This document shows, piece after piece, positions 1 through 42,355 of a stretch of 64,000 bases of DNA. The DNA is from Porphyrobacter sp. Lineage in GTDB: Bacteria; Pseudomonadota; Alphaproteobacteria; Sphingomonadales; Sphingomonadaceae. Within the stretch, counting starts at the first letter, position 1. Each line of letters starts with the position of its first letter. The DNA is taken from assembly GCA_032116115.1 (NCBI GenBank), contig JAUMAX010000020.1:6220-70219 (forward strand). Direction: 5' to 3'. The notes beneath the pieces are model-generated. The model had not been told where the DNA came from and did not search any database. It saw only the letters and a list, made by a program, of their open reading frames with translations. The position numbers were made by a program, and so were the translations under genes.

Positions 1-941
1 ATACGCGGCTTAAAACCATCGGTTTTGGTATGCTTGCTGTCCTGCTGGCATTTTATCTTCTATTCTTTGCCTTCCTCACGCAGAGGGCGCGCCGAATGAG
101 CCGGTTGATCGACGAACCGCTGTCAGAGATCTCGGAGCTTATCGATCATATATCCGATCGCAGCATAGAGCCGAGCTTCAGCGGGTCGAGTGTGCACGAA
201 ATGGACGAACTCGGACATCACCTGATCGCAACGCGCAAGAAGCTGCTCAATGCCGAGGATGAGGCGGGCATCCAGAGCCGTATTGCCCGCACCGCGTTGA
301 TTCAGTTGCGTGAAGCCAACAGCGAGATGTTCAGCTTCACCCAGTTGATGTCACACGAGATCCGCACCCCTCTTTCGATCATCGACGGAAGCGCCCAAAT
401 TATTCAACGAAAGGCAGACACTCTCAGCCCCGAAGACTTGCGCGATCGCGCCGCCCGACTGCGCAAAACGGTTGCAACCGTCGCCGATATGCTGACGAAA
501 TTGCTCACCCGCTTCCACGCAATCGTCATGGAGTCGCCGATCGAAAATGGTGAGATACAGCGAAACCTGTGCACAGAGATTCGCGCTCTTGCCGAAGCGA
601 TGTTCGTAAGCGAACGGCTGCACCTTACGATCCCGAATGAATGCCCTTCGACAATTGGCCAAATAGGCGCTCTCATCATGACTATTCAGGAGGTTTTTGA
701 ATATGTCGCCGAAAATTCACCGCCGGACAGTCCGATAGAGGTCGTCCTTCACTGCGATGCAGACACCATTGTGACAACAATTGCCAGTGAGGCCGCAGCA
801 GATGACGGGTACCGGCTGAAACGCGCACGCAGCTTCGCAGAGCGGCTCGGTGGCACCATCCAGATTGCGCCGCCTTCTTGTGCAAAGGCGATCAAGATTG
901 TGGTTCCAACCTGGGTTAGTTTTGTTAATGGACGCAAATGA
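1..941 (+). CDS. Membrane sensor histidine kinase, 5'-truncated by the window edge; HisKA intact, ATPase domain degenerate
   Basis: Frame is open upstream of the ATG at 30; hydrophobic TM segment, HAMP-like linker, H-box LMSHEIRTPLSIIDG; G1/G2 boxes not recognisable. Confidence 0.8.
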   Translation, partial: TRLKTIGFGMLAVLLAFYLLFFAFLTQRARRMSRLIDEPLSEISELIDHISDRSIEPSFSGSSVHEMDELGHHLIATRKKLLNAEDEAGIQSRIARTALIQLREANSEMFSFTQLMSHEIRTPLSIIDGSAQIIQRKADTLSPEDLRDRAARLRKTVATVADMLTKLLTRFHAIVMESPIENGEIQRNLCTEIRALAEAMFVSERLHLTIPNECPSTIGQIGALIMTIQEVFEYVAENSPPDSPIEVVLHCDADTIVTTIASEAAADDGYRLKRARSFAERLGGTIQIAPPSCAKAIKIVVPTWVSFVNGRK

Positions 942-1336
942 TCGCCGCCTCCCGCATCTTGCTCGTCGAAGATACCCTTGAGCTTAGGGAGGACCTCAAG
1001 TTTGTTCTGGAGGATAGCGGCTATACAGTTGTGGAGGCCGAAAGCGGCCAAGCTGCTTTGTCGGCGTTCAGGGAAGCGCGGCCGGATCTCGTTATCTGCG
1101 ATATCCAGTTGCCGGATACCGATGGTCTCTTTGTCCTAAAATCAATTCGTACATGCCAGAGTGGTTGCGATCAGATGCCGGTGATCGTCGTTTCCGCATT
1201 TTCAGACCCAAAATTGCGCCGCGAAGCAGAGGCTCTCGGTATCGACGGGTTCATACTCAAACCTGTAGATTATTCAGACCTTCTCAAGCTCATCAGCCAA
1301 AGTCTGCCTGACTCCGCTGCGATCTCGGAAACTTAG
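938..1336 (+). CDS. Single-domain response regulator (CheY-like receiver)
   Basis: LLVED, DLVICDIQLPDTDG phospho-Asp, VSA, LKP motifs; ATGA overlap with the kinase. Confidence 0.92.
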   Translation: MIAASRILLVEDTLELREDLKFVLEDSGYTVVEAESGQAALSAFREARPDLVICDIQLPDTDGLFVLKSIRTCQSGCDQMPVIVVSAFSDPKLRREAEALGIDGFILKPVDYSDLLKLISQSLPDSAAISET

Positions 1337-1346: not shown

Positions 1347-2138
1347 TTATTGCCCGCAAGCGCCGGCAAGCCGCATGTCGAGCAATTCTTCACGCCGATC
1401 CTTGGACAGCTCCGCGCCAAAGGCAACATCGATCTCGCTATAAACGCTGCAGACCTGAGCGGGATCCACATTACCAAGTGCGCGCAACGCCCGGGCCAAA
1501 GCGAACAAATTCTCTGCGCCCATGCCATCAGGTGGGCCGGCCTCGAATAGCTCGATGAAAATGTTGGCCGCCTGCCCTGCCTGGCCCTGCTCCAAGTAAA
1601 CAAGGCCAAGCCGATAGCGGGCTTCCTTGATCCGCTCATCGCCAGGACTGTTGGCGATGAAAGTCGTCAGCGCAAGTTCGGCGTTCGCCCATTCTTTCCG
1701 CTCCAGAAAGGCTCCCGCCTGTTCGAGGCGGTCGACTGGCAAGGGCACAGCTTGCTGCGTCGACGCAGGCGACTCGGCTGTCCCCGTCATGGTAACAGGG
1801 GCAAGCGGAGGCGCGGCGACGATTTCACCCGCCTTCGCATCGCTGCGAAGCCGGGCCAGTTCGTCCGCCAGCAAAGCGAGGCTGCGCTGATCCTCGTCCT
1901 GCCGCGATACCAGTTGCACGATGATGCGTTCCAACGAAGCAAGTCGGTCGTTCAGGCGCAGCATTTCGTCCCCAAGCGCAGTGTACCTAAGGTCTGCAGA
2001 TGCAACTGCCTGTGCCGAGACCCGATCAGTCACAGGATCAGCCGCTGCACCGGTCTGGGCAACCGCAACAATTGGCCAGAAGGTCACTCCCGAAACGGCG
2101 AGGCCAAGCGCCGCGAGGGCGTATCGGAAACCTCCCAT
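1347..2138 (-). CDS. YbgF/CpoB-like protein (signal peptide, coiled coil, TPR)
   Basis: Signal peptide ending AVA-Q, coiled-coil segment, TPR-like ARYRLGLVYLEQG and ENLFALARAL; last gene of a tol-pal-like cluster. Confidence 0.75.
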   Translation of the reverse strand: MGGFRYALAALGLAVSGVTFWPIVAVAQTGAAADPVTDRVSAQAVASADLRYTALGDEMLRLNDRLASLERIIVQLVSRQDEDQRSLALLADELARLRSDAKAGEIVAAPPLAPVTMTGTAESPASTQQAVPLPVDRLEQAGAFLERKEWANAELALTTFIANSPGDERIKEARYRLGLVYLEQGQAGQAANIFIELFEAGPPDGMGAENLFALARALRALGNVDPAQVCSVYSEIDVAFGAELSKDRREELLDMRLAGACGQ

Positions 2139-2140
2139 GA

Positions 2141-2797
2141 TCAGAATCTGAAGCCTACGCCGGCAGCTACGATCAGCGTACCCAGCCGCCGCGAATCGTT
2201 GGTGCGCGCTTCGCGCTCGATCAACACTTCCGTTTTGCGCGAGGTGTATTTAGCGTCGAGGTTCAGATAAATTCTATCATTGATCGCTATATCCGCGCCG
2301 ATCTGGGCCACGGGCGCAAAGCCGCTTGTCAACCGGACGCTGTAAGAAGCAAACGGGTCGGGTGCAGAATTGAGCAGCGCTACATCCGCCCCCTCCCCGT
2401 AGATATTGAGATGCGTGACGCCTGCACCGACGTACGGCCGAAGGACTTTGTCATCGCGGGCAAAGTGGTACTGCACGGTCGCGGTGGACATGAGCATATT
2501 TGCAGAGACAAGCTTTTCACCCGAAGGGGCGCGCAATTGGTAACCGGCGCTTCCGAGCGCAGCCTCAAACGCGAGGCGATTGGTGAGGAACATGGTCAGA
2601 CTGACTTCTGCTCCGACAGTGTCCTCGACGCCGGATTCGACCGCTTCACCCTCGTTGGGAAGTGTTAGCGTCAACCCGTCCAGCCGGTGATGATAGGTTC
2701 CCCTTGCCTTGATGAGAATATCACCAACTTCGGCATTGGCAGGTGCGCTCCCGAGCAGGGCCGCGATGGCGGCTGCAAGCATAGTCATTTCACGCAT
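2141..2797 (-). CDS. ompW: OmpW-family outer membrane beta-barrel
   Basis: SD AAGGAA before ATG 2797, signal ANA-E, RPYVGAG, GFAPVAQIGADI, LNLDAKY, C-terminal GFRF. Confidence 0.85.
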   Translation of the reverse strand: MREMTMLAAAIAALLGSAPANAEVGDILIKARGTYHHRLDGLTLTLPNEGEAVESGVEDTVGAEVSLTMFLTNRLAFEAALGSAGYQLRAPSGEKLVSANMLMSTATVQYHFARDDKVLRPYVGAGVTHLNIYGEGADVALLNSAPDPFASYSVRLTSGFAPVAQIGADIAINDRIYLNLDAKYTSRKTEVLIEREARTNDSRRLGTLIVAAGVGFRF

Positions 2798-2816: not shown

Positions 2817-3362
2817 TCACTGTCCGGCCACGCCCTTGAAGATCGTCTCTCCACGCCGGTTGCGGCGCTGGCTCTCCTGATCGAGAGCGGTGGCCACCGG
2901 CTTTTCCTTGCCAAACGAGGTTATCTGAATGCGCGCCGAGGCAACGCCGCGCGCTGCCAGATGGCGCCGCATTGCCGCAGCCCGCATTTCGCCTATCGCA
3001 AATTGCCGACCACGGTTGCCCAGCAGGTCTGCATGGCCCCGCAATGTGGCGGTGACGCGTGGATTCTGGAGCAGCCATTCAGCTTGCATGTCGAGCACGC
3101 CGCGCGCCGCGGCATCGAGCGTTACGCTGTCGCGATCAAAATAAATGATGGTCGATCCCGCAAAGGGCTCAGCTACCGGTTCCACGACCACAGGCGCAGG
3201 CTCGACCTGCTGGGCGCGCAGCGGCTCGGCAGGCAACCAGAACATTGGTGCAGGAGGCAGGTCCTGGGCCGGGCGTTGGCAGGAGCTCAGTCCCACACAA
3301 AACGCCATCAGAATGGAAGCCGACCGCCGTCCGAATGGGCGCCACAACCATATACTGTTCAT
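2817..3362 (-). CDS. Pal-like OmpA-domain lipoprotein (island paralog)
   Basis: Lipobox LSSC; IYFDRDS...GHAD...GEMRA...GV...SFGKEKP; ATGA overlap with the tolB-like stop. Confidence 0.85.
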   Translation of the reverse strand: MNSIWLWRPFGRRSASILMAFCVGLSSCQRPAQDLPPAPMFWLPAEPLRAQQVEPAPVVVEPVAEPFAGSTIIYFDRDSVTLDAAARGVLDMQAEWLLQNPRVTATLRGHADLLGNRGRQFAIGEMRAAAMRRHLAARGVASARIQITSFGKEKPVATALDQESQRRNRRGETIFKGVAGQ

Positions 3363-4672
3363 GGCAGAGTCTCCGACCAATGCGGCTCAGATCCGGCCAA
3401 GGGCAGAGCGATGCGGTATTGCACCCGCCCTGCGACATCTGTGACCCAGATCTCTGGCGGACTGCCGTTTTGGCTCACCCTCTGAAAGGAAACTGCCCTC
3501 CCGCTGGGAGCCCAGGACGGGTCTTCGTCATGCCCTCCTTCGGTGAGTATCCGTCTCTTGCTGCCGTCAGGCGCCATTACGCCGATCTGCTGCCCCTCGG
3601 AGGTCTGGGTGACGAAGGCGATCAGCGATCCGTCGGGGCTCCACACCGGAGAACCGTGCACTCCACCAAAACTGATCCGGCGCTGGTCACCGCCATCTAG
3701 CCGCATCACGTACAGCTGCGGTTGTCCGGAACGGTCGGATTCAAACACAATCGATTTTCCGTCAGGAGAATAGGACGGACTTGTGTCAATTCCCGTCATG
3801 TCGGTCAGGCGCTGCGATCGGCCGACAGCGAATTCATATTCGTAAATATCGGTGTTGCCGTCTTGCGACAAAGCCAACACTGCCCGACTTCCATCAGGAG
3901 AAAAGCGGGCCGCCGACGGCAGACCGGCGGGGAGCTGCAGCGATGTCCTGCGTCCGCTTTCCAGATCGAACAGGACAATGCGTGGCATGTCGCTCTGATA
4001 GGCGACGAACAGGGCCGAGCGGTTGTCGGGACTAAACTGCGGCATCGCGACGAGTTCGCCGTTGTTCAGAAGTTCGGTTGGGTTTGCCCCGTCGACATCG
4101 ACAGCGATGAGCCGGGTGGCCGGTTCTTCAGCGGCCGCGCCGGAAGAAACAAGCACGAACCGCGTATCGAAATGGCCTGAATATCCCGTCGCATGAGCAA
4201 AGACGAGATCGGCACACTTGTGAGCCGCCCTGCGCCATTGCCGCTGGGAGACACGAAATTCACGAGCGGTTTCGATGGTGCCGCTGAAAACATCGTAGAG
4301 CGCGCAAGAATAGACCAGCATACCGTCCGCAGCGCGCGCTGGCCGTCCGATGACAAGCGCTTGCGCGCCTTTGGCCGAAAATGCGCTAAGCAAGCTCTTG
4401 TCGTCGGCAACCGCCGCCGAAGGCGCATCGACGACACGGAAGAACGAACTGGTCGTCAGATCCGCGCGAATAACCGATGCAAGGGCGAGGCCAATATCCC
4501 CGCCCGTTCCAGCTTCGACCTGAATGTCGCTGGCAATAGTCGGGATTCCGATGGCAAGCGGAGCCATCACGCCTTCTTTTATGTCGACAAACAGACGATC
4601 CTGCGCAGCTGCCGGCGAGATGCAATTCGCCACAGTCAGCAGGGCAATAGACACGGCAAGATTCAGTCTCAT
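3359..4672 (-). CDS. tolB: TolB paralog (N-terminal domain plus PD40 beta-propeller)
   Basis: WRRAAHKCADLVF, repeated PxFSPDG/PSYSPDG/PSWAPSG, FESDRSG; colinear with the core TolB in this window. Confidence 0.9.
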   Translation of the reverse strand: MRLNLAVSIALLTVANCISPAAAQDRLFVDIKEGVMAPLAIGIPTIASDIQVEAGTGGDIGLALASVIRADLTTSSFFRVVDAPSAAVADDKSLLSAFSAKGAQALVIGRPARAADGMLVYSCALYDVFSGTIETAREFRVSQRQWRRAAHKCADLVFAHATGYSGHFDTRFVLVSSGAAAEEPATRLIAVDVDGANPTELLNNGELVAMPQFSPDNRSALFVAYQSDMPRIVLFDLESGRRTSLQLPAGLPSAARFSPDGSRAVLALSQDGNTDIYEYEFAVGRSQRLTDMTGIDTSPSYSPDGKSIVFESDRSGQPQLYVMRLDGGDQRRISFGGVHGSPVWSPDGSLIAFVTQTSEGQQIGVMAPDGSKRRILTEGGHDEDPSWAPSGRAVSFQRVSQNGSPPEIWVTDVAGRVQYRIALPLAGSEPHWSETLP

Positions 4673-5559
4673 CTCAGATCTCTCGAGTCGAATTCGACTT
4701 CGACGTCGGCCCAGGCCTCATAGAGTTCGGGCGGAAGCCGGAGCGGGGAGCACATCAAAACGGCACGACGTCCGCTGTTCGTGAGCAGATTGATGTATGC
4801 GGTGCTGACTTGGTTCTGGCCGGTTACGCCGCTCCGCACCGGTTGTCCGACGACACGGCCATCCCGATCCAAGCGAAACCTCAACCGCACACTGGTAGAA
4901 GCGAGACCATCAGCCGGTGGCGGGTTCCAGCACGGCATCACCTGTGCGCGAACCTTTTCGGCCAGATCGATCTTTTGCCGGAAAGTAAGCCCTTGAATGC
5001 CCTTGGGCGCCGCTTTGCCGACTGACGAACTGATGGTTGCTGAGTTGAGCCTTGACGGCTTAGCCTCGCTGCTCGCGAGATTGCGCAAGCCTGACAGGGC
5101 GGCCGCATCAAAGCGCGCTACGCGTCCGGCGCCCGGCTGCGGCTGCACGACGGGCGACGCGTTAGCAACTTGGGTAGGTTCTTCGGCCACAGGCGTAGGG
5201 GTCGGCGCAGGCGCAGCCGTAGGCTTCGGTACAGCCAAACGACTTTCGGACTCGGTATCAGATGGAACCGTCTTTGGCGTGACCTCCGGCTCCGGGCGAA
5301 CGGAAGCGGAGCGCATTGAGACAGTTTCGGGCTCCTCGGAGACAACATCGCGAGCCTGCGGCTGCGAGCGTGTAGCTGGCGGAGCATCGGCGATAACCGG
5401 GCGCGAGACGGGCATGGCGTGCGCAAGATCGATGATCTCGATCTCCATGCCTTTCTTCCGCGGTTCAGCCTCCTGGATTGCAAAGGTGACCCTGCCCAGC
5501 AAGAGGACGACGGCAATGTGCAGGATTACCGCTAACGCGTTAGAAACACGGTCGATCAC
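4669..5559 (-). CDS. TolA/TonB-like energy transducer (island paralog)
   Basis: N-terminal TM with His (AVILH), Pro/Thr/Glu-rich linker, C-terminal domain CWNPP...RFRLDRDG...W..VEVEFD. Confidence 0.8.
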   Translation of the reverse strand: MIDRVSNALAVILHIAVVLLLGRVTFAIQEAEPRKKGMEIEIIDLAHAMPVSRPVIADAPPATRSQPQARDVVSEEPETVSMRSASVRPEPEVTPKTVPSDTESESRLAVPKPTAAPAPTPTPVAEEPTQVANASPVVQPQPGAGRVARFDAAALSGLRNLASSEAKPSRLNSATISSSVGKAAPKGIQGLTFRQKIDLAEKVRAQVMPCWNPPPADGLASTSVRLRFRLDRDGRVVGQPVRSGVTGQNQVSTAYINLLTNSGRRAVLMCSPLRLPPELYEAWADVEVEFDSRDLR

Positions 5560-6020
5560 GGCAGGTCCGCGGAAGCCGGTTCGGCCGCCGGAACGGAAAC
5601 GAACGCAACCTTGGTAAAGCCAGCTTGCGCGATTCCTGAGACAACCTCCATCACGCTGCCATAGGCAAGCGACCGATCGGCGCGGACGAAAACCATCTGT
5701 TTGTCCGGGGCCTCGGATGCAAGCGCAAGCTGGGCGATGGCCTCCCCGAAAGCCTCTGGCGCCAAAAGCGTTCCGCCCAAGTATGTTTTCTGCTCGGCAT
5801 CGAGGATGACCTCAATCGGTTCTCCCCCGGCTGCGAGCGGGTTCGCGCGAACGTCGGGAAGGTCCACCTCTGTGCCGGAAACCAGCATTTGCCCGGTGAC
5901 CATGAAGATGATCAGCAACACCAGCATCACATCCACCATCGGGGTGACGTTGATTTCGGACAACAGATGGTCCTGCCGACGATGTCGGCGAGACCCGAGA
6001 AAATGCGATTTACCTGCCAT
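5556..6020 (-). CDS. tolR: TolR/ExbD paralog
   Basis: EINVTPMVDVMLVLLIIFMV with the essential Asp; VRADRSLAYGSVMEVV. Confidence 0.92.
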   Translation of the reverse strand: MAGKSHFLGSRRHRRQDHLLSEINVTPMVDVMLVLLIIFMVTGQMLVSGTEVDLPDVRANPLAAGGEPIEVILDAEQKTYLGGTLLAPEAFGEAIAQLALASEAPDKQMVFVRADRSLAYGSVMEVVSGIAQAGFTKVAFVSVPAAEPASADLP

Positions 6021-6049
6021 TGCCGCGCCCTAAGCCCTTCCCGCCAAGA

Positions 6050-6736
6050 TCAACGGATGATGCCGTACTGACGAGAAATGGCGACTTCGACGCGACCTGC
6101 GGTCGCACGCCACTCCTGATCGGTAGCTGCGAGCGCTTGCACGATCCGGTTGTAACCCATCGATGCCGGGATCGCGCAGAACAAGCCGACTGCGGTGGCA
6201 AACAGTGCTTCCGCCATCCCAGGCGCAACAACTGCAAGCGACGTATCCTGCGCCTGGCTGATGCCAATGAAGCTGTTCATGATACCCCAGACTGTGCCCA
6301 GCAGGCCAAAGAATGGAGCAGTATTGCCAATGGTAGCCAACCAGGTCGAATTGCCGGCAAGTTGCGCATATTCGCGCTCGATTGTTAGTTCCGATGCTGA
6401 CGCAAGACGATCCCGGATGTTCTCGTAGTCGCGGCTGGCGTGTTCAATGGACCACTTCCATTCCTGGGCCAGTGAGTGCAGGATCTCATGGACCCTGCCA
6501 TCGCCTGACACAGCAAGCTCTCGTAATTCTTCAATTGTCTCGACGGAACGAAGAAGCTTGCCGACGGTGCGGATCATTCGCCGCTCAATCGCGATCGCCA
6601 ATGTGCGGGCTATGATAACCGACCATGAATAGGCAGATGCCAGGACGAGGAGAATTATGACCGATTGAACGACCAGATCGGCTTCGAAGAAAATCTGTAA
6701 GGGCGTCATGCCGGATGAAATCCTTCCGATGGTCAT
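6050..6736 (-). CDS. tolQ: TolQ/ExbB paralog
   Basis: LATIGNTAPFFGLLGTVWGIMNSF and VAPGMAEALFATAVGL MotA/TolQ motifs. Confidence 0.93.
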   Translation of the reverse strand: MTIGRISSGMTPLQIFFEADLVVQSVIILLVLASAYSWSVIIARTLAIAIERRMIRTVGKLLRSVETIEELRELAVSGDGRVHEILHSLAQEWKWSIEHASRDYENIRDRLASASELTIEREYAQLAGNSTWLATIGNTAPFFGLLGTVWGIMNSFIGISQAQDTSLAVVAPGMAEALFATAVGLFCAIPASMGYNRIVQALAATDQEWRATAGRVEVAISRQYGIIR

Positions 6737-6782: not shown

Positions 6783-7382
6783 TTAAAGAACGAGAGCGCG
6801 GAACAGGGTGGCGAGGTCAGGCACGCCGGTGACGGTGATCTTTTCGCGCTTCTGGAATGTCTCGACCGCCGTAGCGATGGACGTGCCCCATTGACCGTCG
6901 ATCGGTCCGGAATACATTCCGCGTTCCAACAGGCGCGATTGCAAGGCTTTGAGCGCCCCCTCGCGTATCGCCATCGTCCGGCCTTTGTGTTCAATAATGA
7001 CGATGGCCGTCGCGTTGCGCTGATGCATCGGAGAGGTTGCGCGAATGACCTCGTGGGCCGCAGCTTCAACGGTAATGGTCGGCTGATCGGCACAAATTGC
7101 CGACACTGCCTGCAAGAAAACTGCTCCATCAGGGAGCGGAAGGACATCAAAGGTTCCGTTTTCCACACGATTTCGTGCAGTCGCATATCCCATCAGCCAC
7201 GAACCATAATTGGCTGCATGTGTGCTGTCCGGGAATTCCGTGTTGAATGTCTCGCACGTGCGTGAACCGTAGCCTCGCAACGCAAAGCTTCCTTCCACAT
7301 CCGATGCAGCGGCGCCGTTATGAAAAAATGCGCTGGCTGCAAAGACTGCGGAGCCCGCCAGAAACTTTGAAAAGCTGTACAT
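6783..7382 (-). CDS. Secreted protein: HdeA/HdeB-like two-Cys N-terminal domain plus PG_binding_1 domain
   Basis: Signal ending AAA-S; GYGSRTC...YGSWLMGY...N...IC..QP; C-terminal LQSRL..RGMY.GPIDG.WG....AV..FQ.......TG..D. Confidence 0.75.
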   Translation of the reverse strand: MYSFSKFLAGSAVFAASAFFHNGAAASDVEGSFALRGYGSRTCETFNTEFPDSTHAANYGSWLMGYATARNRVENGTFDVLPLPDGAVFLQAVSAICADQPTITVEAAAHEVIRATSPMHQRNATAIVIIEHKGRTMAIREGALKALQSRLLERGMYSGPIDGQWGTSIATAVETFQKREKITVTGVPDLATLFRALVL

Positions 7383-7537: not shown

Positions 7538-10500
7538 TTACTTGGCCCCGATGACGGAAACCGAGCTGTTGCCGATAGCCGTCGCCGAGCCAGCGTTGCC
7601 GCTGTTCACGAAGCTGCTGGCACCGAACGTCCCGAACGAACCGACGCTGTAGGTCACATTAGATGCAACCGCAGTCACTGCGCCGGTGTTGGTCTGCTGG
7701 TTACCCAGCGCGACATTGGCCATGCCGGTGTTCAGCGAGCTCAGCATGACAGTGTTGGCTGTCGTGTTTCCGACCGCAAAGGCCGTCGTGCTGTTGTTGC
7801 TGTTGCTGACACTTGCATTCAGCACACCCGCAGTCGTTGCCGCGCTCGTCGCGTTGAGGGCGATCGACGTCCTCCCCGTGGCGATGGCGGACACCGAACC
7901 GGTGTTCGACTGATCGTTGAGCAGCGCCGCATTTGCCTGGGCAAGGTTGGTTCCGCCATTGATCGTCGCGTTGCCATCAGCACCCGTATAGCTGGCGCCT
8001 GCGGTGTAGTTCAGCGTGTTGGAAGCGCTGTTACCGCGAGCAAGTGCCAGGGTGGTGTTACCTTCGACAGATACCGAGCTGGTATCGAGCGAAGGCAACG
8101 GGTTCGGCAGAATTCCTGCGTCGCCGCTGACAGTGAACTGAACGTTGCTGGTCGCATTAGCCACGGTGGTGGTGCTGCTGGACTGCTGGTTCACCAACAT
8201 TGCCGATGAACCAAGGTTCGCATCGGCACCCACGGACATCGTGTTGGCCGAACGGTTGGCAGTCGATTCCGACCGGGTCGCGTTGTTCGACATCGAGACG
8301 CTGCCATCGACGAGACCAGTGGTGGTCGTGTCGTTGGAGCCGATGTTGTAGACGCTCGTGGTGGCCGAAGTATCCAGCGTTCCCGTTGCATTCTGGGCGT
8401 TGACCAGAACGAACGAAGCGTCGCTGTTGGCAGTAGTGCCATTTGCAACATTCGAATTACCGGCTGCCTGAGCCACCGAAGTCGAATTGGTTGACGATGC
8501 AGTCAGCGTGTTGGTCGCGTTATTGACCACACCCAGCGCACTGTTGGCGTTGCGATCCAGTGCCACGTTCGACCCGCTGGAAACGACGTTGGCCGCCACT
8601 TCCATGTCGCTGCTGGCGTTGATGTCAGCCGTTGCACCATCTTGCACACTGGTCAGCACGCCCGACGTTGCCGTTCCGGCCAGATCCGTACCAGCAACCG
8701 TGAGGCTGTTGGTCACGGTGTTACCGATCGCTTCACCGTACGCGCTGTTGCCCGATACGCTGAGGGTCGAGTCGGTGATCGCCGTGTCAAGTGCACCATC
8801 AATTGCGAAGGTGGTGAACACTTCGGTCGTGCTGCTGCTACCTGCCAGCAGCGTCTGGGTGGAAGCCAGGGATGAGTCGGCTGTGCCTTCCGCTTCTGGC
8901 TGACCAGTCCCATTCACCCAAGCTTGGGAGTTACCGATGGCATTGTTACCATCAGCCGAAGTCGATGCGACAGTCACGCTGTTGGCCGCCGAGTTGCCAA
9001 TCGCCGACCCCTGCACCGCGTTGCCTTCAACGGCAATTGTGCTGGAGTCGATGACACCTTCAACGTCCACCAGAACACCGCCGGCGTTGAACGATCCAGT
9101 GGTGCCGGACACTGGCAGAGTTACACCGCCCGTACCGGGGGTGGCGTAGGAGAATACGCGCGTGATGGGGTTATAAGTGACGGCGTATTGGGCGAGGAAT
9201 GCATTCACCTCGTCAGTGCTCAGACCAGCAAGGCTGCCGGTCGCAACACCAGCGGTGATCGTTGCCGAAACGGTGAACGGTGCAACATCGGCGCTGCCAG
9301 CAAAACCGATCAGAGCAGAAACATCCTGCGAGCTGACCTGAGCGTTGCCAAGACCTGCAGTGACCCCGTCCAGCGTGGTTCCGTCGACACTGACCGCGTT
9401 GGTCGCACGGTTGCTGGAGGCAAGTGCCTGCAGCAGGTTACCGTTCGATTCAATCGAGGACGAAGTGACAGTGGAGTTCACGTCGGTGACAACCGCCGAG
9501 CTGTTTCCAAAGGCGCCGCCGGTTGCTTCACGCAGGCTGGCGACCACATTGCCGGCACCCGCCACCTGGGTGTTGGACACCCCGAACTGCGCGTCGACAG
9601 TATTTTGGTCGCTACCCGGATACGCATCCGACTGGGCGGTAAGCGCGCTGCCCGAAAGCGACGTGCCCGAAACCGTCAGGACATTGCTGGCCCGAGCGGA
9701 TTCTGCCGAAGTCATGACCCGGTTGTTCGAGGTTTCCACCGAGCTGCGCAGAATTGCGAGATCGATTTCAGTCTCGGCGACAGCCTGTCCATCGCCATTG
9801 ACGGTGGCAAGAATATTTGCCCCGGCAACGTTCTGGAGGTTGGCAATCGCTGCATCGCCCTGGCTGTTGACCGAAGTCAGCGTGCCGACGTCCAGAGTCA
9901 CAGCATTGGCTGCCACCGTGCCCTGTGCCTGTGCCATCAGCGTGTTGGCATTCACGACGGTGTTCGCGTCGGTCAGCCCACCTTGCACATCCATGCGGAA
10001 CGAGTTCGTGTCATCCGGAATGCTCGTGGCAGTCACACCCGCACGCACCTGCTGCACGTTGACAACGCCAAAAGCGGCGGTGGCAGTTGCATCAAGCGAC
10101 GTCGGGCGGCTGTTGGTTACACCGCCGTTCGCGCCCAGCTCAAGGATCTGCGCGTCAACGGTAAGGGTGTTGGCAGCAACGGTACCGCGTGCAATTGCCG
10201 AAGCATTGTTGCCCGCAATTTCCGCCGAACTTTCAACGACGTTACCGCGGTAGCTTACATCGACCGAAGCATTCTGCGTAGCCGTAACGGTCGAAGTTGC
10301 ATCATTGGTCTGCAAGTTCGCAATGCCAGCTGCCGAACCGACAGTGACACCCGTCAGCGACAGGCTGTTGCCAGCATCGCTGCCGACCGCAAAGGCCTGC
10401 TGGGCATTGTTGGTGACAGCAACCGAAGTGTTGGTGGCATTGCCGCTCTGAGTCTGTCCGATGGTGACATCAATGTCCGATGCACTGTTCTCGGCAGACA

Positions 10501-12196
10501 CGGTCGATGCGGTGTTGATCATTGCACTGGCAATGACGACCGCACCAGAGGCAGAGACAGCCTCGTCACCCAATGCCACCGGTGCCAGATCAACCGTCAG
10601 AGCCGCCGAAGTGGCCGTGCCGGAATTCAGCGAGGTCGCTTCCAGACCGATCGTCTGACGGGCACGGTTGCCCGCTGCGCTGGAAGCCAGAACGTTGGCA
10701 TCCACCGTGATCGTGCTGTCAATGAAGCTGGCAGTGGCACTGCCTGCAACATCAACATTGATATCAGCATTGTCCGAATCTGCCTGAAGATCAACGGTGT
10801 CCAGTTCCTGACGCGAGGCCAGCACGGCCGATGCATCAAACACTGCCGAAGAATCACCGCTGGCAATAACTGCGTTCAGGTTGTTACCCGTTGCCCCGGA
10901 CGTGATGCGGTTGGACGATGCATCAATCGAGCTGCTGTTGGGAGTCTCGACATCAACATCAACCTGGTTGCCGTCGCTCAAGCTGCGCAAAATGCCAGTC
11001 GTCACGACCTGCGTGTTCACGCCGACCAGACCGCCGCTGGCGATGACATCAGCCAGGTTGGCCGGGCCCGCACCAAGTTCGTCGATCGTTGCGCTGGCCG
11101 TATTGGCCGCCCCGGTGTTGTAGGCAAGACCATCAGCCAGTGCGATCTGCGTCGTGGCAGTGTTGCCGTTGGCCGCAGCTGCAATCGTGTTCGAAGCAAC
11201 CGACAGGCTGCTGTCGACGAACGACGTGGTGACGGCACCAGGACCGGAAATGTTGGCCCTTACGGCATTGCTCCGAGCGATAGCAGCATTGTCGGTGGTG
11301 TTCGCATCGAACGACTGCGCATTGCTGATCGCTGCCGTCACCGAGGTGTTGGCATCGTCAGCAGCAAGGCCGATCGAAGCGGTACGTGCGTTTGCAGTGA
11401 AGGTTGCAGTCACGTCATTGCCGTCGAGCGTGGCCGTTCCAGTGACGTCTGCAGTTGCAGTCGTCGAGATCGACACGAAGGTCGTCGAATCAGCCGTTTC
11501 TGCGGTCGAATCGGCGCTTGCATTTGCGATCTGCACCGACGACACCAGCAGCGTGCCCTCAAGGTCGGCAACGTCGGTGGCCGAACCCGAAAGGTCGGCC
11601 GTGACAGTAGCGTTGTTGGTGGCAAGATTGGTGTAACCAACCGGCTCCGAACCAGTGATCGACAGCGCGAAGGTGTTGCTGCCTTCGTTGATCACAACAC
11701 CGGAAGATACCGTGTTGTTCGAAACATCGACCGAACCGGTCGCGAAATCGACCAGAGTGGTGCCGATGTCTGCCGAAGAATTGGTGGCATCCACACTGGC
11801 AGTTACGCCCGTGTTGACCGACACACCCGACAGCGCAATGCCATCGTCAAGCAGGGTTGAGCTGCCGATATTGGCGAGCGAAGCCGAAACGCCGTTGCGG
11901 TTGGCAATGGCGGTCGCATCGGCAGTGTTCGCGTTGTTTTCGAACACGCCGTTGGTGACCGCACCAGTGTTGGCGGTGGTCGCATCGAAATCGACGTTGG
12001 TGGCGAGTACGGCACCAGTGTTGCGCTGGGCAGTGGTGTCACCGCCGGTGACGTGCGCCTGCAGCACCGAATCAAAGTTCGGAGCAGTCACAATGGACTG
12101 CGCTTGTGCCGGACCGGCAATGATCGCGGATGCCAAAATGGCAGTGCTGGCGCCAGCAAATAGCTGTGAGCGTTTTGTGGATATTCTACTATTCAT
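7538..12196 (-). CDS. 1552-aa secreted beta-repeat surface protein (HfaD/curli-like repeats; adhesin, fibre or S-layer candidate)
   Basis: Sec signal ending AQA-Q; about 18 copies of S-x-x-V-x-x-N-x3-A-x-A-x-G-N-x-A-x-N, mostly followed by an N-x-Q segment; rich in Ala/Ser/Thr/Asn/Val/Gly/Asp, no Cys. Confidence 0.85.
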   Translation of the reverse strand: MNSRISTKRSQLFAGASTAILASAIIAGPAQAQSIVTAPNFDSVLQAHVTGGDTTAQRNTGAVLATNVDFDATTANTGAVTNGVFENNANTADATAIANRNGVSASLANIGSSTLLDDGIALSGVSVNTGVTASVDATNSSADIGTTLVDFATGSVDVSNNTVSSGVVINEGSNTFALSITGSEPVGYTNLATNNATVTADLSGSATDVADLEGTLLVSSVQIANASADSTAETADSTTFVSISTTATADVTGTATLDGNDVTATFTANARTASIGLAADDANTSVTAAISNAQSFDANTTDNAAIARSNAVRANISGPGAVTTSFVDSSLSVASNTIAAAANGNTATTQIALADGLAYNTGAANTASATIDELGAGPANLADVIASGGLVGVNTQVVTTGILRSLSDGNQVDVDVETPNSSSIDASSNRITSGATGNNLNAVIASGDSSAVFDASAVLASRQELDTVDLQADSDNADINVDVAGSATASFIDSTITVDANVLASSAAGNRARQTIGLEATSLNSGTATSAALTVDLAPVALGDEAVSASGAVVIASAMINTASTVSAENSASDIDVTIGQTQSGNATNTSVAVTNNAQQAFAVGSDAGNSLSLTGVTVGSAAGIANLQTNDATSTVTATQNASVDVSYRGNVVESSAEIAGNNASAIARGTVAANTLTVDAQILELGANGGVTNSRPTSLDATATAAFGVVNVQQVRAGVTATSIPDDTNSFRMDVQGGLTDANTVVNANTLMAQAQGTVAANAVTLDVGTLTSVNSQGDAAIANLQNVAGANILATVNGDGQAVAETEIDLAILRSSVETSNNRVMTSAESARASNVLTVSGTSLSGSALTAQSDAYPGSDQNTVDAQFGVSNTQVAGAGNVVASLREATGGAFGNSSAVVTDVNSTVTSSSIESNGNLLQALASSNRATNAVSVDGTTLDGVTAGLGNAQVSSQDVSALIGFAGSADVAPFTVSATITAGVATGSLAGLSTDEVNAFLAQYAVTYNPITRVFSYATPGTGGVTLPVSGTTGSFNAGGVLVDVEGVIDSSTIAVEGNAVQGSAIGNSAANSVTVASTSADGNNAIGNSQAWVNGTGQPEAEGTADSSLASTQTLLAGSSSTTEVFTTFAIDGALDTAITDSTLSVSGNSAYGEAIGNTVTNSLTVAGTDLAGTATSGVLTSVQDGATADINASSDMEVAANVVSSGSNVALDRNANSALGVVNNATNTLTASSTNSTSVAQAAGNSNVANGTTANSDASFVLVNAQNATGTLDTSATTSVYNIGSNDTTTTGLVDGSVSMSNNATRSESTANRSANTMSVGADANLGSSAMLVNQQSSSTTTVANATSNVQFTVSGDAGILPNPLPSLDTSSVSVEGNTTLALARGNSASNTLNYTAGASYTGADGNATINGGTNLAQANAALLNDQSNTGSVSAIATGRTSIALNATSAATTAGVLNASVSNSNNSTTAFAVGNTTANTVMLSSLNTGMANVALGNQQTNTGAVTAVASNVTYSVGSFGTFGASSFVNSGNAGSATAIGNSSVSVIGAK

Positions 12197-12251: not shown

Positions 12252-13616
12252 TTACTTTATTTTTATTTGTATTTTTGCGATTTCCTGGAACCCCGGGCCA
12301 TCACGATATATTGCGGAATCGCCCGAAGATGGCCTCCAGTTCACTTGCACCGCTGAAGCAGGTACCCCCCTGTTTGAAAGCGCGGCGACTACCGCCGCAA
12401 TGCGCTGGTCCAGCAGGGCGTCGCGCCGTGCCGGATCCCAGTTCTCAGTGTCCCGCGCGACCAAAGTCACCGAGACAGTGCCCTCGCCCGAAAGCTGGGC
12501 AATCATGTCCAGCACGGATTGTGCGCTCGACATGAGATTGGAATCGCCGAACTCGAAGCCGAGCTGCATCTGGCCGGCAGCGGAAGATGCACCCTTCGCG
12601 TCCAGTTCGTTGAGCGAGCGAGCGGCTGTGGGAGTCGGCATTGCCGGAGCCTGCACAGGCGCGGGGACGTATCCTTCCTGGCTCGAAACCAACAAAGACC
12701 GTCCGCGCAGTTCGTCTGCCGACTTCTCGGGAATGGTATCGAGGCGCTGCGCCATGCAAGTCGCCGGGTCGACGTTCTTGACCGAGGCAACCAGCTTAAG
12801 AACGCCCTCCTCGAGCGCCGTGCGGATCCCAAGCTGCAAGGGCTCCTGGCCCTTCGCACCGATATTGATGTCGAACAGTTCGGTGCCGAAAAAGCGAAAG
12901 ACGCCGGCACCAATCTCGTACCCGCTGAATTGCTTTGTCAGGCTCACCGTTTTCAGCACCAGCAGTGAACGTGTATCGACAATCCGCAGGTCGATAGCGA
13001 CGCTTTGCGTGTACACACGCGCTTCCGGGCCGACATTGTTGACTGTGATTTGCGCACCGCCGGAGCGGATGTTGTAGTTTACTTCCGTGATGCCGCCGAC
13101 AATGTAGTAATCAGACTGCGCAATCGTCCCGCCAAAGTAAGGAAGCCACGGCACGCGATCACCATTTACCTGATGCACTTGGCCGTTGCCAAGCTGACGA
13201 CGATCCGTGTAGCCCAATTCGCGCTCGGCAATTGTCGGGTCAAAGCGCTCAGCTATCCGGAGCGGCCCGCCGATCTTTCCAAGTGCAGAATACACCATCA
13301 GCGATCCGCCCTGCGTGATCGCGTTGCCTTCATTGATGGAATATTTGCCGGTGTAATCGCGAACTTCTCCGACCGCGACGACAACAGGTTGGGAGGTCGT
13401 TGCAGTCAGCTGATCACCGAAGCAAGCGAGCGCCCCCTCCATCGGCGAGCGATTGTCACGAACTGGCGCACCGATTGCGATCGGCACTTCGCCCGGCGCG
13501 ACCCGCTGGCTGTCGAGGCCTACTCCCGTCGCGGCACAGCCTGAAAGGCCGCTGCCGAGCAAGGTAACCATCGCCGCAATTGCAGCGCGCGGAGTTTTGC
13601 GATTTGCGGAATGCAT
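12252..13616 (-). CDS. hfaB: HfaB/CsgG-family outer membrane lipoprotein with C-terminal OmpA-like domain
   Basis: Lipobox LSGC; VGEVRDYTGK, ITQGGSLM, SDYYIVGGITEVNYNIRSG, AIDLRIVDTRSL, EPLQLGIR match HfaB/CsgG as recalled; tail GFEFGDSNL...QRIAAVVAAL..RGVPAS resembles OmpA_C. Confidence 0.85.
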   Translation of the reverse strand: MHSANRKTPRAAIAAMVTLLGSGLSGCAATGVGLDSQRVAPGEVPIAIGAPVRDNRSPMEGALACFGDQLTATTSQPVVVAVGEVRDYTGKYSINEGNAITQGGSLMVYSALGKIGGPLRIAERFDPTIAERELGYTDRRQLGNGQVHQVNGDRVPWLPYFGGTIAQSDYYIVGGITEVNYNIRSGGAQITVNNVGPEARVYTQSVAIDLRIVDTRSLLVLKTVSLTKQFSGYEIGAGVFRFFGTELFDINIGAKGQEPLQLGIRTALEEGVLKLVASVKNVDPATCMAQRLDTIPEKSADELRGRSLLVSSQEGYVPAPVQAPAMPTPTAARSLNELDAKGASSAAGQMQLGFEFGDSNLMSSAQSVLDMIAQLSGEGTVSVTLVARDTENWDPARRDALLDQRIAAVVAALSNRGVPASAVQVNWRPSSGDSAIYRDGPGFQEIAKIQIKIK

Positions 13617-13622: not shown

Positions 13623-14156
13623 CTATCCAGCTGCCGCATACTGGCAAGCCGACGATCCATTGATGGTCGACGTCTGGTTGCCCGAGTTCGTCTGGCGGGT
13701 ATTGAGCGCCTGGAAATTGTCACCTCGGACAGAGGTTGACATCGAACCCGATGATCCAGCGGCGACTGCACCCGAATTGCCCTGCGTCGTTGTATCGGTG
13801 CTGCCGTCACCCGGTCCGCCAGCTGCGTATGTCGTGTCATTCTGGTTACCGGTCGCATCAGTATTGTGCCCTGCCGTGCTGGGCGAGTTGGCGACCGCAT
13901 TTGACGACGACTCATTTCCAGTCGCAGTCGAATTGACCGAGCAATTATACTGATCATCGATGTAGGTATTATATATTGGGGCCGAATAATAACCGTTTAT
14001 TCCGCGCTGACGCACTTCTTCAAGATACATAAGCGCCGCTCTATCGGCTGGTGTGTTGAATTGCCAAGCCGCATTTTCGCCAACGTTATTGGCAAATGAT
14101 GGCTGCGCGACAAGAGATCCAACCATGGATATTGCGAGAAACAACTTCTTGGGCAT
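13623..14156 (-). CDS. Small secreted Asn/Ser/Thr/Gly-rich protein, HfaA/CsgA-like subunit candidate
   Basis: ATG 14156, signal ending SFA-N; STATGN, TDATGN, QTNSGNQ motifs shared with the giant protein; sits directly upstream of hfaB as hfaA does. Confidence 0.7.
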   Translation of the reverse strand: MPKKLFLAISMVGSLVAQPSFANNVGENAAWQFNTPADRAALMYLEEVRQRGINGYYSAPIYNTYIDDQYNCSVNSTATGNESSSNAVANSPSTAGHNTDATGNQNDTTYAAGGPGDGSTDTTTQGNSGAVAAGSSGSMSTSVRGDNFQALNTRQTNSGNQTSTINGSSACQYAAAG

Positions 14157-14212: not shown

Positions 14213-15541
14213 TCACAATGCAGGCATCGAACAAGCCGACGCCTCGTGCTGCGCATGAGGCGCCGCCACCTTCGCCCAGGATCTGGAAATTCGTTGACCA
14301 CCGCACCACGCGCCCTTTTGCAGCGCAGCGCGACTTTCACGCGCGACAGTAGCCAGGTTGATACAGTCCACACCGTCGACAATGACCTCGGCACCCAAGG
14401 CGTGCGCCAATCCGACAAGGTAAGAAAGTGGATCACCGCCAAATTGGGTGCGCAATGTTTGCGAGAGAAAATGCCTGTCAATCGTCACAAAATCGGGAGT
14501 GAAAGCGACCAGATCGCGCAACGACGTCGAGCCTAGGCCGAAGTTGCCGAAGGATATGCGACAACCTTGCCGCCTGAGCATGGCGAGCGTTTCGCTCATA
14601 CCTGGGGCCGCGCAGGCCACTGCAGATCCTCTGACCTCAACGATCAGGTCACGCGCTACACCGCCGCCGCGCTCGAGCTTTTCGAGAATTCCGCGCCAGA
14701 AATGTTGATCGGAGAGGCTTTCGTGAGAGACTGAGACCAATAATGAGACCGCGCCACGCGCTTCAATCAACTCGTCGGCCGCACGCGAGACGATATAGCT
14801 GTCAAGCAAATGGACGAGGCCAACTCGCTCTGATGCTGCTATTACCTGCTCGCAGGCCGCAGGCTGACCATCCGCTCTGATCAACGCAAGCGTCGCTTCG
14901 TAGAAGGCCGATCCGCCTGGCGCGGCCGCTCTGCCGACGGGCCGCCAGCCAATATCGACATCGACGACATCTCTTGCCAGTCCGACTCGCTCGGCTTCGC
15001 GAAATCCACCAATTGCGGCAAGTACGGGCGACAAGACCGCCATATCAGTACGATACGAGCGCCGAGCAGCCTCGACAGCCGACAGGATGATGACATCTGG
15101 ACCGGCCGCAGCGACGCCATTATTCAGACAGCGCTCTGAACCATCAAGATTGATTACGGAGGCGTGGAGATGAACCGGCCCCGCGGCGGTGAACACTGGT
15201 TCGAGAACAATGTCTCTGATGAGCGCTTCGAGCCAATCGCTTTCGGCATGGTCGAACCGATCAGAGCCGCGCTTGGGCGCGCCCCAGAAGATCACCCCTA
15301 CGCGTGCTGCACCTTCGGGGCTTGCTACGCCGGCCGAACCGAGCCCGGCCTGCACACGCGCCAACAAGGTGGCAAACGCAGCTTGCGCAACTTCGAGGCC
15401 GAACGCCTCGACGATCATTTGATAGTTTTGTATTTCTATTACGAACACTTGCTCCGACCTGACGTCGGATAAACGCTGCCGTAGAGAGGGGTGAATCAGT
15501 ATCTTGTTCGACAATTGCAAATCGCTGAGATCCACGTCCAC
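14213..15541 (-). CDS. Degenerate GGDEF-EAL protein (probably catalytically inactive)
   Basis: EAL-fold landmarks FYEATL, LIVEV, FGNFGLGSTSL, VTIDRHF, VIVDGVD; eroded N-terminal GGDEF-like segment; GTG start. Confidence 0.8.
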   Translation of the reverse strand: MDVDLSDLQLSNKILIHPSLRQRLSDVRSEQVFVIEIQNYQMIVEAFGLEVAQAAFATLLARVQAGLGSAGVASPEGAARVGVIFWGAPKRGSDRFDHAESDWLEALIRDIVLEPVFTAAGPVHLHASVINLDGSERCLNNGVAAAGPDVIILSAVEAARRSYRTDMAVLSPVLAAIGGFREAERVGLARDVVDVDIGWRPVGRAAAPGGSAFYEATLALIRADGQPAACEQVIAASERVGLVHLLDSYIVSRAADELIEARGAVSLLVSVSHESLSDQHFWRGILEKLERGGGVARDLIVEVRGSAVACAAPGMSETLAMLRRQGCRISFGNFGLGSTSLRDLVAFTPDFVTIDRHFLSQTLRTQFGGDPLSYLVGLAHALGAEVIVDGVDCINLATVARESRAALQKGAWCGGQRISRSWAKVAAPHAQHEASACSMPAL

Positions 15542-20731: not shown

Positions 20732-21135
20732 TCGCCGAGGTTGAGCGGCTCGTTGCCGAGATCGAGACCCTCGATCTCGAAGGCCTGCGCGATGTTTGGA
20801 GGGAGCGCTACGGCGCCCCTCCCCCGCTGCGCTCGGCGCCGATCATGCGCCAGCTGCTGGCATGGCGCGTGCAGGCACAGGCGCTGGGCGGGCTGGATGC
20901 CGAGACCCGCAAGGTATTGGCACGCTCCGGTCCCGTGCAGGCCGACGGCAAGCACCTCGGGGTTGGCGCGCAGCTGACGCGCATCTGGAAAGGCCGCGAG
21001 ATCACGGTGATCGTCGAGGAACAGGGGTTCCGCTGGGAGGACGAGCTGTTCCCCAGCCTCTCGGCCGCGGCCACCGCAATCGCAGGCACGCGCTGGAACG
21101 GGCCGCGCTTCTTCGGCTTGCGAGATGCTGCATGA
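20728..21135 (+). CDS. DUF2924-like protein
   Basis: LRDVWRERYG.PPP...LLAWRVQ...GGLD; LTRIWKG...SLSAAATAIAGTRWNGPRFFGL; ATGA overlaps at both ends. Confidence 0.82.
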   Translation: MIAEVERLVAEIETLDLEGLRDVWRERYGAPPPLRSAPIMRQLLAWRVQAQALGGLDAETRKVLARSGPVQADGKHLGVGAQLTRIWKGREITVIVEEQGFRWEDELFPSLSAAATAIAGTRWNGPRFFGLRDAA

Positions 21136-22712: not shown

Positions 22713-22719
22713 CGCGATC

Positions 22720-22939: not shown

Positions 22940-23109
22940 CAAACCGAACCGATGCAGGATCGGCAAGAGACGGGCCGCGCAAATGCCGCCTGATATCGCC
23001 GATGAGACAGCCACAATGATGCGGCCGTTACGGTTTGGCGCGCGCAAACCGGCCTGTTCCGCGGACTTGCGGTAGGTACCCGAATCCAGAGACGAGTGCT
23101 GGGGGTCGG

Positions 23110-40091: not shown

Positions 40092-40124
40092 CGCTCGTGT
40101 TCCTTTCACTCGTAACGGGGAAAA

Positions 40125-41522: not shown

Positions 41523-41523
41523 G

Positions 41524-42345: not shown

Positions 42346-42355
42346 CGCATCCCGA

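Follow-up and report, generated by a model that had tools for sequence, protein, structure and literature searches.

The Tol-Pal system is treated as a single-copy housekeeping machine for the constriction and integrity of the outer membrane. A Tol-like machine of another kind occurs in Myxococcus, in whose Agl-Glt gliding machinery a proton motor of the TolQR type is reportedly linked genetically to components of the outer membrane and of surface adhesion; to our knowledge, Agl-Glt has no orthologue pair of TolB and Pal arranged as in the canonical operon and does not amount to a near-complete Tol-Pal copy. Here we describe a full and maintained second Tol-Pal set, carried on mobile elements, which lies together with the core tol-pal operon in a 64,000-nucleotide stretch of DNA from Porphyrobacter sp. 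(GenBank assembly GCA_032116115.1, contig JAUMAX010000020.1, positions 6,220 to 70,219 of the forward strand). This whole stretch is called the window in the following, and coordinates refer to it unless stated otherwise.

Parts of a recent survey of Tol-Pal evolution discuss TonB paralogues, and Tol-Pal duplicates are not discussed there (PMC12204202). The Caulobacter genes hfaA (curlin-like), hfaB (CsgG-like translocon) and hfaD (adhesin/S-layer-like) form a locus that contains no dedicated Tol-Pal set and no EAL or H-NOX genes (PMC6707917). Searches of the literature for a Tol-Pal paralogue with CsgG, a second or additional Tol-Pal, HfaABD, or the cargo of integrative conjugative elements of sphingomonads returned no description of the module reported below.

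A second Tol-Pal set next to the core operon

The second set occupies positions 1347-6736 on the minus strand and consists of seven co-directional genes, tolQ2-tolR2-tolA2-tolB2-pal2-ompW-cpoB2. These genes, and the core operon in the same window, are as follows.

6050..6736, minus strand: tolQ2, 228 amino acids (aa), inner-membrane proton-channel subunit (Pfam MotA_ExbB 4.2e-31) with the motifs GTVWGIM and AEALFAT
5556..6020, minus strand: tolR2, 154 aa, stator subunit with the transmembrane Asp in TPMVDV (Pfam ExbD 2e-23)
4669..5559, minus strand: tolA2, 296 aa, GTG start; transmembrane helix with His (AVILHIAVV), Pro/Ala-rich linker and TolA-III-like C-terminal domain
3359..4672, minus strand: tolB2, 437 aa, periplasmic beta-propeller protein (TolB_N and PD40 repeats)
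2817..3362, minus strand: pal2, 181 aa from an ATG overlapping the tolB2 stop; lipoprotein with OmpA-like domain
2141..2797, minus strand: ompW-family gene between pal2 and cpoB2, 8-stranded outer-membrane barrel (Pfam OmpW 2.5e-21)
1347..2138, minus strand: cpoB2/ybgF-like gene, periplasmic coiled-coil and TPR protein (TIGR02795 4.7e-11, TPR matches)
39570..43964, minus strand: open reading frames of the core ybgC-tolQ-tolR-tolA-tolB-pal operon (TolB 403 bits, MotA_ExbB 130 bits; ybgC at 43497-43964)

Gaps between the genes of the second set are mostly 2-29 bases long or are replaced by 4-base overlaps, the latter at the tolR/tolA, tolA/tolB and tolB/pal junctions. The order tolQ-tolR-tolA-tolB-pal(-cpoB) is retained, with two departures: ompW stands between pal and cpoB, and ybgC is missing, as had been noted in a preliminary description of this DNA; the gene upstream of tolQ2 encodes a protein with a PG_binding_1 domain instead. 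The same description had delimited the complete set as 2817-6736. The five genes tolQ2 to pal2 are indeed present in this range, but the set runs further, through ompW and cpoB2 to 1347. In the list of open reading frames pal2 begins at 3380, from a TTG.

Only TolB2 passes its NCBIfam equivalog cut-off (TIGR02800, 356.8 versus 343.15 bits), and because TolQ, TolR, TolA, Pal and CpoB of the second set score below theirs, the set has to be regarded as divergent. The best NCBIfam model for TolR2 is tolR (109 bits, under the cut-off), TolA2 matches TIGR02794 weakly (23 bits), whereby the TolA proteins of relatives carry PF27683, and Pal2, with the lipobox LSSC and a Pfam OmpA match of 2.5e-15, reaches 86.9 bits (8e-25) against TIGR02802, whose cut-off is 125.35. 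The identity between second and core copies is 39% for TolQ over the full length, 41% for TolR, 38% for TolB and 34% for Pal; TolA2 is 30% identical to core TolA at the C-terminus only. Exactly two TolB genes of the genome exceed the cut-off, and its MotA/ExbB family numbers five genes.

It is hardly credible that the second set is an ordinary ExbB-ExbD-TonB uptake system misread as Tol. TolQ2 does score slightly higher against the exbB model (182 bits, cut-off 206) than against the tolQ model (177 bits), both values being under the cut-offs, and C-terminal domains of TonB form a second tier among the structural matches of TolA2. However, TolQ2 and TolR2 score 143 and 85 bits against TolQ and TolR of the genome, far more than the 66 and 42 bits against its ExbB and ExbD, and TolR2 reaches 88 bits against the ExbD equivalog model, whose cut-off is 153. 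An AlphaFold2 model of the last 130 aa of TolA2 (predicted local distance difference test score, pLDDT, 77.7) retrieved TolA domain III as the four best Foldseek matches in the PDB, namely 2x9a_B (E 6.5e-4, probability 1.00), 1lr0, 6s3w and 3qdp. In addition, TolB2, which lies above the equivalog cut-off, Pal2 and CpoB2 come next in operon order, and the Pfam and NCBIfam assignments revealed no TonB-dependent receptor in the module. The bit scores, the TolA-III matches and the downstream genes thus contradict an ExbBD-TonB identity.

The core operon itself is followed by a gene encoding a DnaJ domain and not by cpoB (38703-41522); a better CpoB candidate is unlinked (C30:22556-22894 of the genome). 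Core TolB of the host genus bears a long acidic N-terminal extension ahead of the conserved start of the fold. Past its signal peptide, TolB2 begins with DRLFVDIKEG (compare LRVDITGG of core TolB), and the N-terminal pattern of TolB proteins related to TolB2, L(F/H)VDIT(E/Q)G, also resembles this core segment. We refer to the TolB proteins of this type, and to the loci that encode them, as T2. The ompW gene was found at the same position in every T2 locus read.

Selective maintenance

All motifs for which the preliminary description had claimed that proton coupling is retained were found on the minus strand in the respective genes: GTVWGIM and AEALFAT in TolQ2, TPMVDV in TolR2 and the transmembrane His in TolA2. 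Its statement on Pal was equally correct, as Pal2 has GHADLLGNRGRQFAIGEMRA where core Pal (39570-40109) has GHADERGTREYNLALGERRA, with the Asp and the Arg 15 residues later both retained. Throughout the T2 clade (about 10 lineages) GTVWGIM and APGxAEALxAT of TolQ, EINVTPxVDVMLVLL of TolR and the transmembrane His of TolA are invariant. Two Cys residues in the C-terminal domain of TolA2 (PCWNPP and RCSPL; 4672-5061, minus strand) are likewise invariant in T2 and absent from core TolA, and might form a disulfide. In Pal, several substitutions are fixed between 12 T2 and 21 core sequences (YN>QF, RRANAA>xRAAAM, ISYGKERP>TSFGKexP, WAqNRRAVT>SQxqNRRGET).

The ratio of non-synonymous to synonymous substitution rates (dN/dS) was determined for one pair, the module described here and that of a relative whose TolB2 is 93% identical (L126). 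It ranges from 0.07 to 0.29 for the seven genes of the Tol set (TolQ2 0.11, TolR2 0.14, TolA2 0.28, TolB2 0.22, Pal2 0.29, OmpW 0.07, CpoB2 0.17) and from 0.04 to 0.47 for all eleven genes of the larger module introduced below, in which the PG-binding protein has 0.47, the giant protein 0.20, the CsgG/HfaB-like channel 0.07 and the small secreted protein 0.04. The second set is a complete, intact, divergent and selectively maintained Tol-Pal paralogue, and its earlier characterization as functional rather than decaying is borne out both by the clade-wide invariance of the coupling residues and by the dN/dS values of the seven genes.

Origin within the family

None of the sampled genomes of the same genus encodes a second TolB (each has one TolB), and a second TolB was found in 3 of 401 genomes of the order; no T2-type TolB was detected in 149 other genomes of the class or in 45 genomes of other classes in the phylum. 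A tree of 107 TolB proteins (LG+C20+F+G4), for which TolBs of other classes served as the root, recovers T2 as monophyletic (100/100 support) on a stem of 1.28 substitutions per site, and T2 together with core TolBs of the organism's own family forms a clade, again with 100/100 support. The core TolB of the host groups with TolBs of the same family, and a quicker tree with 175 rows agrees. Measured from the node uniting T2 and own-family core copies, the mean path length is 2.90 for T2 and 0.82 for the core copies. T2 thus evolves about 3.5 times faster than the core copies, and its distribution is patchy. Since the T2 clade groups with the core TolBs of the family and has a long stem, it is an old duplicate of the core system which was born within the family (Sphingomonadales) and is now moving horizontally.

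This agrees only in part with the preliminary description, which had assumed horizontal acquisition. For the genome analyzed here acquisition is supported by the absence from the same genus, the occurrence in 3 of 401 genomes of the order, the low GC content, the boundary at a tRNA-Ser gene next to a serine recombinase and the mobile neighbours of the set in relatives (see below); a distant donor is not, since the paralogue arose inside the family. An origin in a distant phylum is ruled out by the grouping of T2 with own-family core TolBs, and a recent in-genome duplication by the 34-41% identity between the copies and by the TolB tree with its long T2 stem.

It is similarly very improbable that the set is a decaying or recently duplicated copy without a function of its own. 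The scores of TolQ, TolR, TolA, Pal and CpoB below the equivalog cut-offs would be compatible with decay, but all open reading frames are intact, the Tol genes have low dN/dS values and the key residues are invariant in about 10 diverged lineages, which rules out pseudogenization; a recent duplicate is at odds with the divergence from the core copies and with an old, monophyletic clade.

Linkage to an export triad

The Tol-Pal set does not occur by itself but makes up the downstream half of a conserved module with about 12 genes. Their order is EAL protein, small secreted protein (about 177 aa), CsgG/HfaB-like lipoprotein (about 450 aa), giant protein (1392-1633 aa), PG_binding_1 protein, TolQ, TolR, TolA, TolB, Pal, OmpW and CpoB. 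The upstream half is an export triad of the holdfast-anchor/curli type with the EAL protein at its head. These genes, and the one for the PG-binding protein, are as follows.

6783..7382, minus strand: PG-binding protein, 199 aa, secreted; N-terminal domain and C-terminal PG_binding_1 domain (Pfam 7e-13), in place of ybgC
7538..12196, minus strand: giant secreted beta-repeat protein, 1552 aa, rich in A/S/T/V/N/G, acidic, without Cys
12252..13616, minus strand: CsgG/HfaB-like channel, 454 aa outer-membrane lipoprotein with lipobox LSGC and an extra OmpA-like C-terminal domain
13623..14156, minus strand: small secreted protein, 177 aa, Asn/Gly/Ser/Thr-rich, in the position of hfaA in Caulobacter
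14213..15541, minus strand: EAL-domain protein (Pfam EAL 1.5e-25), heading the module in a conserved position

The genomic context was read in about a dozen lineages out of 74 T2 clusters, and the same order was found in every T2 locus with sufficient flanking sequence (TolB2 identities of 93, 70, 64, 50, 49 and 46%). Two basal lineages (43-46% TolB2 identity) show the same order plus two extra genes; the most basal contig is too short. The linkage was also seen from the other side. Scanning 185,579 species genomes for the HfaB-like gene with two exact peptide patterns, which gives a lower bound, yielded at least 8 loci, all in Sphingomonadales (Novosphingobium hassiacum DSM 14552, Novosphingobium sp. 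B1, Sphingobium indicum BiD32, Sphingosinicella, Erythrobacter and other metagenome-assembled genomes, MAGs). Six of these 8 loci reach beyond the giant gene, and all six run on into the genes of the Tol set in the same order. In loci of the Sphingosinicella type (L027-L029, 356-8561), two extra paralogues of the giant gene (about 1300 and 1372 aa), besides the copy that follows the HfaB-like gene, are located between tolQ and tolR, the second ending 41 bases before tolR, and with giant genes interleaved in the tol operon in this way their co-transcription seems hard to avoid.

The small protein, the channel and the giant protein, which we call the triad, also occur by themselves. Relatives of the small protein with 44-51% identity are encoded in Variovorax, in a Bradyrhizobium MAG (next to Trb genes), on another contig and on a plasmid of Variovorax paradoxus, and these Variovorax/Bradyrhizobium-type loci lack Tol genes as well as a PG_binding_1 protein and OmpW. 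Because the triad occurs alone in these hosts, it is the core of the module, and the Tol set, the PG-binding protein, OmpW and CpoB are an add-on whose parts are all directed to the wall or the outer membrane. The PG-binding protein fits this pattern in being conserved upstream of tolQ2 in T2 loci and absent from triads without Tol genes; its N-terminal domain has no match in Pfam, NCBIfam or a PDB sequence search.

Among the triad proteins, the channel is the one with a recognizable family. It matches Pfam CsgG (PF03783) with 63.9 bits (1.7e-17; cut-off 20.8) and CsgG in the PDB (5e-12), is the sole CsgG-family gene of the genome and shows 79% mean column identity among 4 relatives. Against the HfaB equivalog (NF037935 holdfast_HfaB) it scores 203.7 bits (2.8e-60), and since this is below the cut-off of 300 bits and the protein has 454 aa with an extra C-terminal domain (124 aa, weak Pfam OmpA match, E 0.0036), we regard it as HfaB-like and not as HfaB. 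The small protein is 57-78% identical in other modules and belongs to a rare family with 116 representatives at E<=1e-3 among 1.84 billion proteins; Pfam, NCBIfam and PDB sequence searches returned no family match. Homologues of CsgA, CsgB, CsgC, CsgE and CsgF were not detected.

Pfam, NCBIfam and PDB sequence searches were also without result for the giant protein, whose relatives are annotated as 'beta strand repeat-containing protein' or 'S-layer family protein'. Two motifs with conserved Asn/Gln, hxhxGNxxxAxAxGNxAxNxhxh and hNxQxNxGxhxAxh, alternate in it with a period of about 75-90 residues. AlphaFold2 modelled its last 520 aa as all-beta with strands of 14-24 residues (pLDDT 79.8, predicted template modelling score 0.82), and a Foldseek search of the PDB with this model found nothing below E 0.03, with template modelling scores below 0.1. 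Some T2 modules additionally encode a 2OG-Fe(II) oxygenase (PF13759) and a protein of about 360 aa, whose genes separate the giant gene from tolQ or follow just downstream (L132 5571-7911; L133 5509-7876; L034/L035 about 15100-15870). The oxygenase may modify the giant protein, which is rich in Asn/Asp.

Genomic island and mobility

The GC content of the module is 59.2%, compared with 64.9% for the genome, and just 1.9% of the genome's 14-kb windows are equally low. Synteny with three genomes of the same genus ends at the 3' end of a tRNA-Ser(GGA) gene (23110). Beyond this tRNA each of the three genomes holds different, unrelated DNA; the site is therefore an integration hotspot. The mobile part of the island, 15600-23200, includes a stretch of low GC content (46-50% at 16-17.5 kb) and the following features.

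20796..23200: right end of the island, with a large serine recombinase (20796-22712, plus strand; Resolvase and Recombinase domains) and tRNA-Ser(GGA) (23110-23200, minus strand)
17929-18498 and 18486-19211: two DUF5681 paralogues near the tRNA-Ser end of the island
19001-20350: fusion of ParB and N6/N4 methylase near the tRNA-Ser end of the island

Absence from close relatives, deviating composition and a recombinase adjacent to a tRNA gene mark the region as a genomic island. The contig ends before the left end of the island, and a second attachment-site copy of the tRNA-Ser 3' end was found neither in the window nor in the sequence just upstream of it (C20:1-6300). Conjugation genes were not found beside the copy of this host, whose two VirB4/TrbE genes are located mid-contig on other contigs. 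In other carriers the module adjoins a Trb-type conjugative type IV secretion system with a LysR gene, or it sits between copies of insertion sequences (IS). The T2 set is thus cargo of genomic islands and integrative conjugative elements, with which it is passed on horizontally. A search of 1-24 kb for RNA elements, including riboswitches, returned the tRNA alone, and a promoter/terminator scan gave fewer sites than were found in shuffled sequences.

Flanking genes

Signalling genes are present at both ends of the module. To judge by eye, the EAL protein has degenerate catalytic motifs (EAT for EAL, SVS for NLS, EVRG for ExTE, GNFG for DDFG, TID for KID, DGVD for EGVE), and it may be a receptor for cyclic di-GMP (c-di-GMP) rather than a phosphodiesterase. 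The opposite end is bordered by a two-gene unit.

30..1336, plus strand: dCache histidine kinase (5' part upstream of the window) and single-domain response regulator, convergent with the module (Pfam HisKA, Response_reg)

The adjoining C20:1-6300 encodes dCache, a second kinase, a 513-aa receiver protein and an H-NOX protein, and the same set of kinase, regulator and H-NOX genes follows the module in L030 and L126. Judged from their domains, these neighbours point to control by nitric oxide (NO) and c-di-GMP, as is typical of a switch to surface attachment. At one basal T2 locus (L133 13585-20759) the module is directly followed by a two-partner-secretion adhesin pair, i.e. a 1791-aa protein with a TPS domain and a ShlB-type transporter.

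Discussion

The reading that we favour, with a probability of roughly 55%, is that the second set runs a private Tol-Pal cycle which tethers and remodels the envelope around the sites of giant-protein export and anchoring. TolQ2 and TolR2 would turn proton flow into force on TolA2, whose domain-III-like head would grip the N-terminal strand of TolB2 and pull TolB2 off Pal2, and the freed Pal2 would bind peptidoglycan as in the canonical cycle, the set working as a private machine independent of that of the host. In tethering and remodelling outer membrane and wall at these sites, the set would be joined by the PG-binding protein, OmpW and CpoB2, and all this would take place during a sessile state controlled by c-di-GMP and NO. 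Its role would be that of an envelope-reinforcing accessory of a surface fibre or layer and not that of a second division machine. The term neofunctionalised, used in the preliminary description, receives indirect support from the invariable linkage to an export triad of the CsgG/HfaB type, which suggests that a cell-division machine may have been re-used for a surface structure. As to the altered partner specificity also proposed there, the clade-fixed substitutions of Pal2 would speak in its favour and the likeness of the TolB2 N-terminal segment to that of core TolBs against it.

Several observations weigh against this reading. The triad exists without a private Tol-Pal in other hosts, so that the add-on is not mechanistically required for export, and the add-on has so far been seen only in Sphingomonadales. 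Linkage can also be produced by genes that move as one cargo block. The N-terminal segment of TolB2 is much like that of core TolBs, and cross-talk with the core system is possible. Finally, in an Erythrobacter sp. MAG (CP121323.1), in which the module is flanked by three copies of insertion sequences, a DDE transposase insertion interrupts the HfaB-like gene after residue 275 while the Tol2 genes look intact; in this organism the module is evidently dispensable.

The separability of triad and Tol set in evolution, and the fact that movement of a whole block on mobile elements alone yields conserved synteny, would also fit an independent, condition-specific Tol-Pal which acts in a sessile, NO-exposed or stressed state, or serves the mobile element, and shares just the cargo block and the regulators with the triad. 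The set is, after all, a full canonical Tol-Pal with its own CpoB. We nevertheless consider such independence unlikely, as the linkage holds through the entire deep T2 clade down to 43% identity, basal branches included, no T2 set was seen without the triad, the genes are interleaved in one lineage, and every host already has a core Tol-Pal. More doubtful still is that the paralogue is the motor of a new, energised secretion or fibre handling of the CsgG type (type VIII-like). TolQ2, TolR2 and TolA2 would then act like ExbBD-TonB on an outer-membrane partner, be it the HfaB-like channel, its OmpA-like tail or OmpW. TolA2 would pass on the proton-motive force by way of TolB2/Pal2, of OmpW or of that tail, and the energy would serve to open the channel, to draw the 1552-residue chain through it, or to tension, anchor or move the fibre; the whole would be a self-sufficient mobile module. 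Tol-like motors do drive surface adhesin complexes, as in Myxococcus gliding, and such a role would suit a substrate about 10 times longer than a curlin subunit, the giant genes inside the tol operon of one lineage, the invariable insertion of OmpW into the set and the T2-specific Cys pair of TolA2. However, triads without Tol genes have equally large substrates (1048-1772 aa) and no private motor, no element resembling a TonB box was identified, and a pure energiser needs no TolB2, Pal2 or CpoB2, all of which are under purifying selection.

All parts of the module belong to known families. What we could not find described is the way they are combined here, in a second Tol-Pal that is complete with TolB, Pal and CpoB, is mobile, has OmpW and a PG-binding protein built in and is always joined to an HfaB-like channel and a giant protein. 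The triad itself is an undescribed export module, rare and present in several orders. A second set so closely tied to an exporter of the curli/holdfast type, and to its giant surface protein, amounts to a natural experiment in re-using the Tol-Pal cycle beyond division. It offers a handle on what sets partner specificity within Tol-Pal, as two complete sets share one periplasm, and also on whether very large substrates can be exported by the CsgG family only with envelope support or energy of their own. Genetic work is feasible, as carriers are available in culture (Novosphingobium hassiacum DSM 14552, Sphingobium indicum BiD32, Novosphingobium sp. B1 and probably Erythrobacter aurantius).

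Comparison with known systems

With canonical Tol-Pal of E. coli, Caulobacter and other Proteobacteria, the second set shares the same seven kinds of proteins minus YbgC in the same order, the transmembrane Thr/Glu/Thr of TolQ, Asp of TolR and His of TolA, a TolA-III-like head, a TolB with N-terminal strand and beta-propeller, and a Pal lipoprotein with Asp and Arg of the peptidoglycan pocket. It differs in being a second copy beside an intact core operon, 30-41% identical to it and evolving about 3.5 times faster; in being borne on mobile elements and rare (3 of 401 genomes of the order); in the replacement of ybgC by a gene for a PG_binding_1 protein and the placement of OmpW before cpoB; and in the clade-fixed changes of Pal, the Cys pair of TolA2 and the constant joining to a CsgG/HfaB export triad.

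The Agl-Glt machinery of Myxococcus is a precedent for a Tol-like machine that serves a surface structure. The duplication of a force transducer for a private outer-membrane partner is a principle common to the second set and to TonB-ExbBD paralogues such as HasB, as treated in parts of the survey mentioned above (PMC12204202). In those paralogues, however, the transducer or motor is duplicated and serves TonB-dependent receptors, whereas here the whole set including TolB, Pal and CpoB is duplicated and a receptor is lacking from the module.

For the triad, the nearest likenesses are curli and Hfa. Curli (type VIII) secretion has in common with it the homologue of the nonameric CsgG-family channel, and the Asn/Gln/Gly-rich strand motifs of the giant protein are reminiscent of curlin repeats. 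Unlike in curli, the putative substrate is a single giant polypeptide and not a polymer of 13-kDa subunits, its repeat period is about 80 aa, and its modelled strands have 14-24 residues. HfaA-HfaB-HfaD of Caulobacter parallel the triad in gene order and character, with a small secreted protein, a CsgG-like lipoprotein and a larger adhesin/S-layer-like protein. In contrast to Hfa, the small and the giant protein of the triad are without detectable family similarity, the third protein is 1552 aa long and the channel carries an OmpA-like tail.

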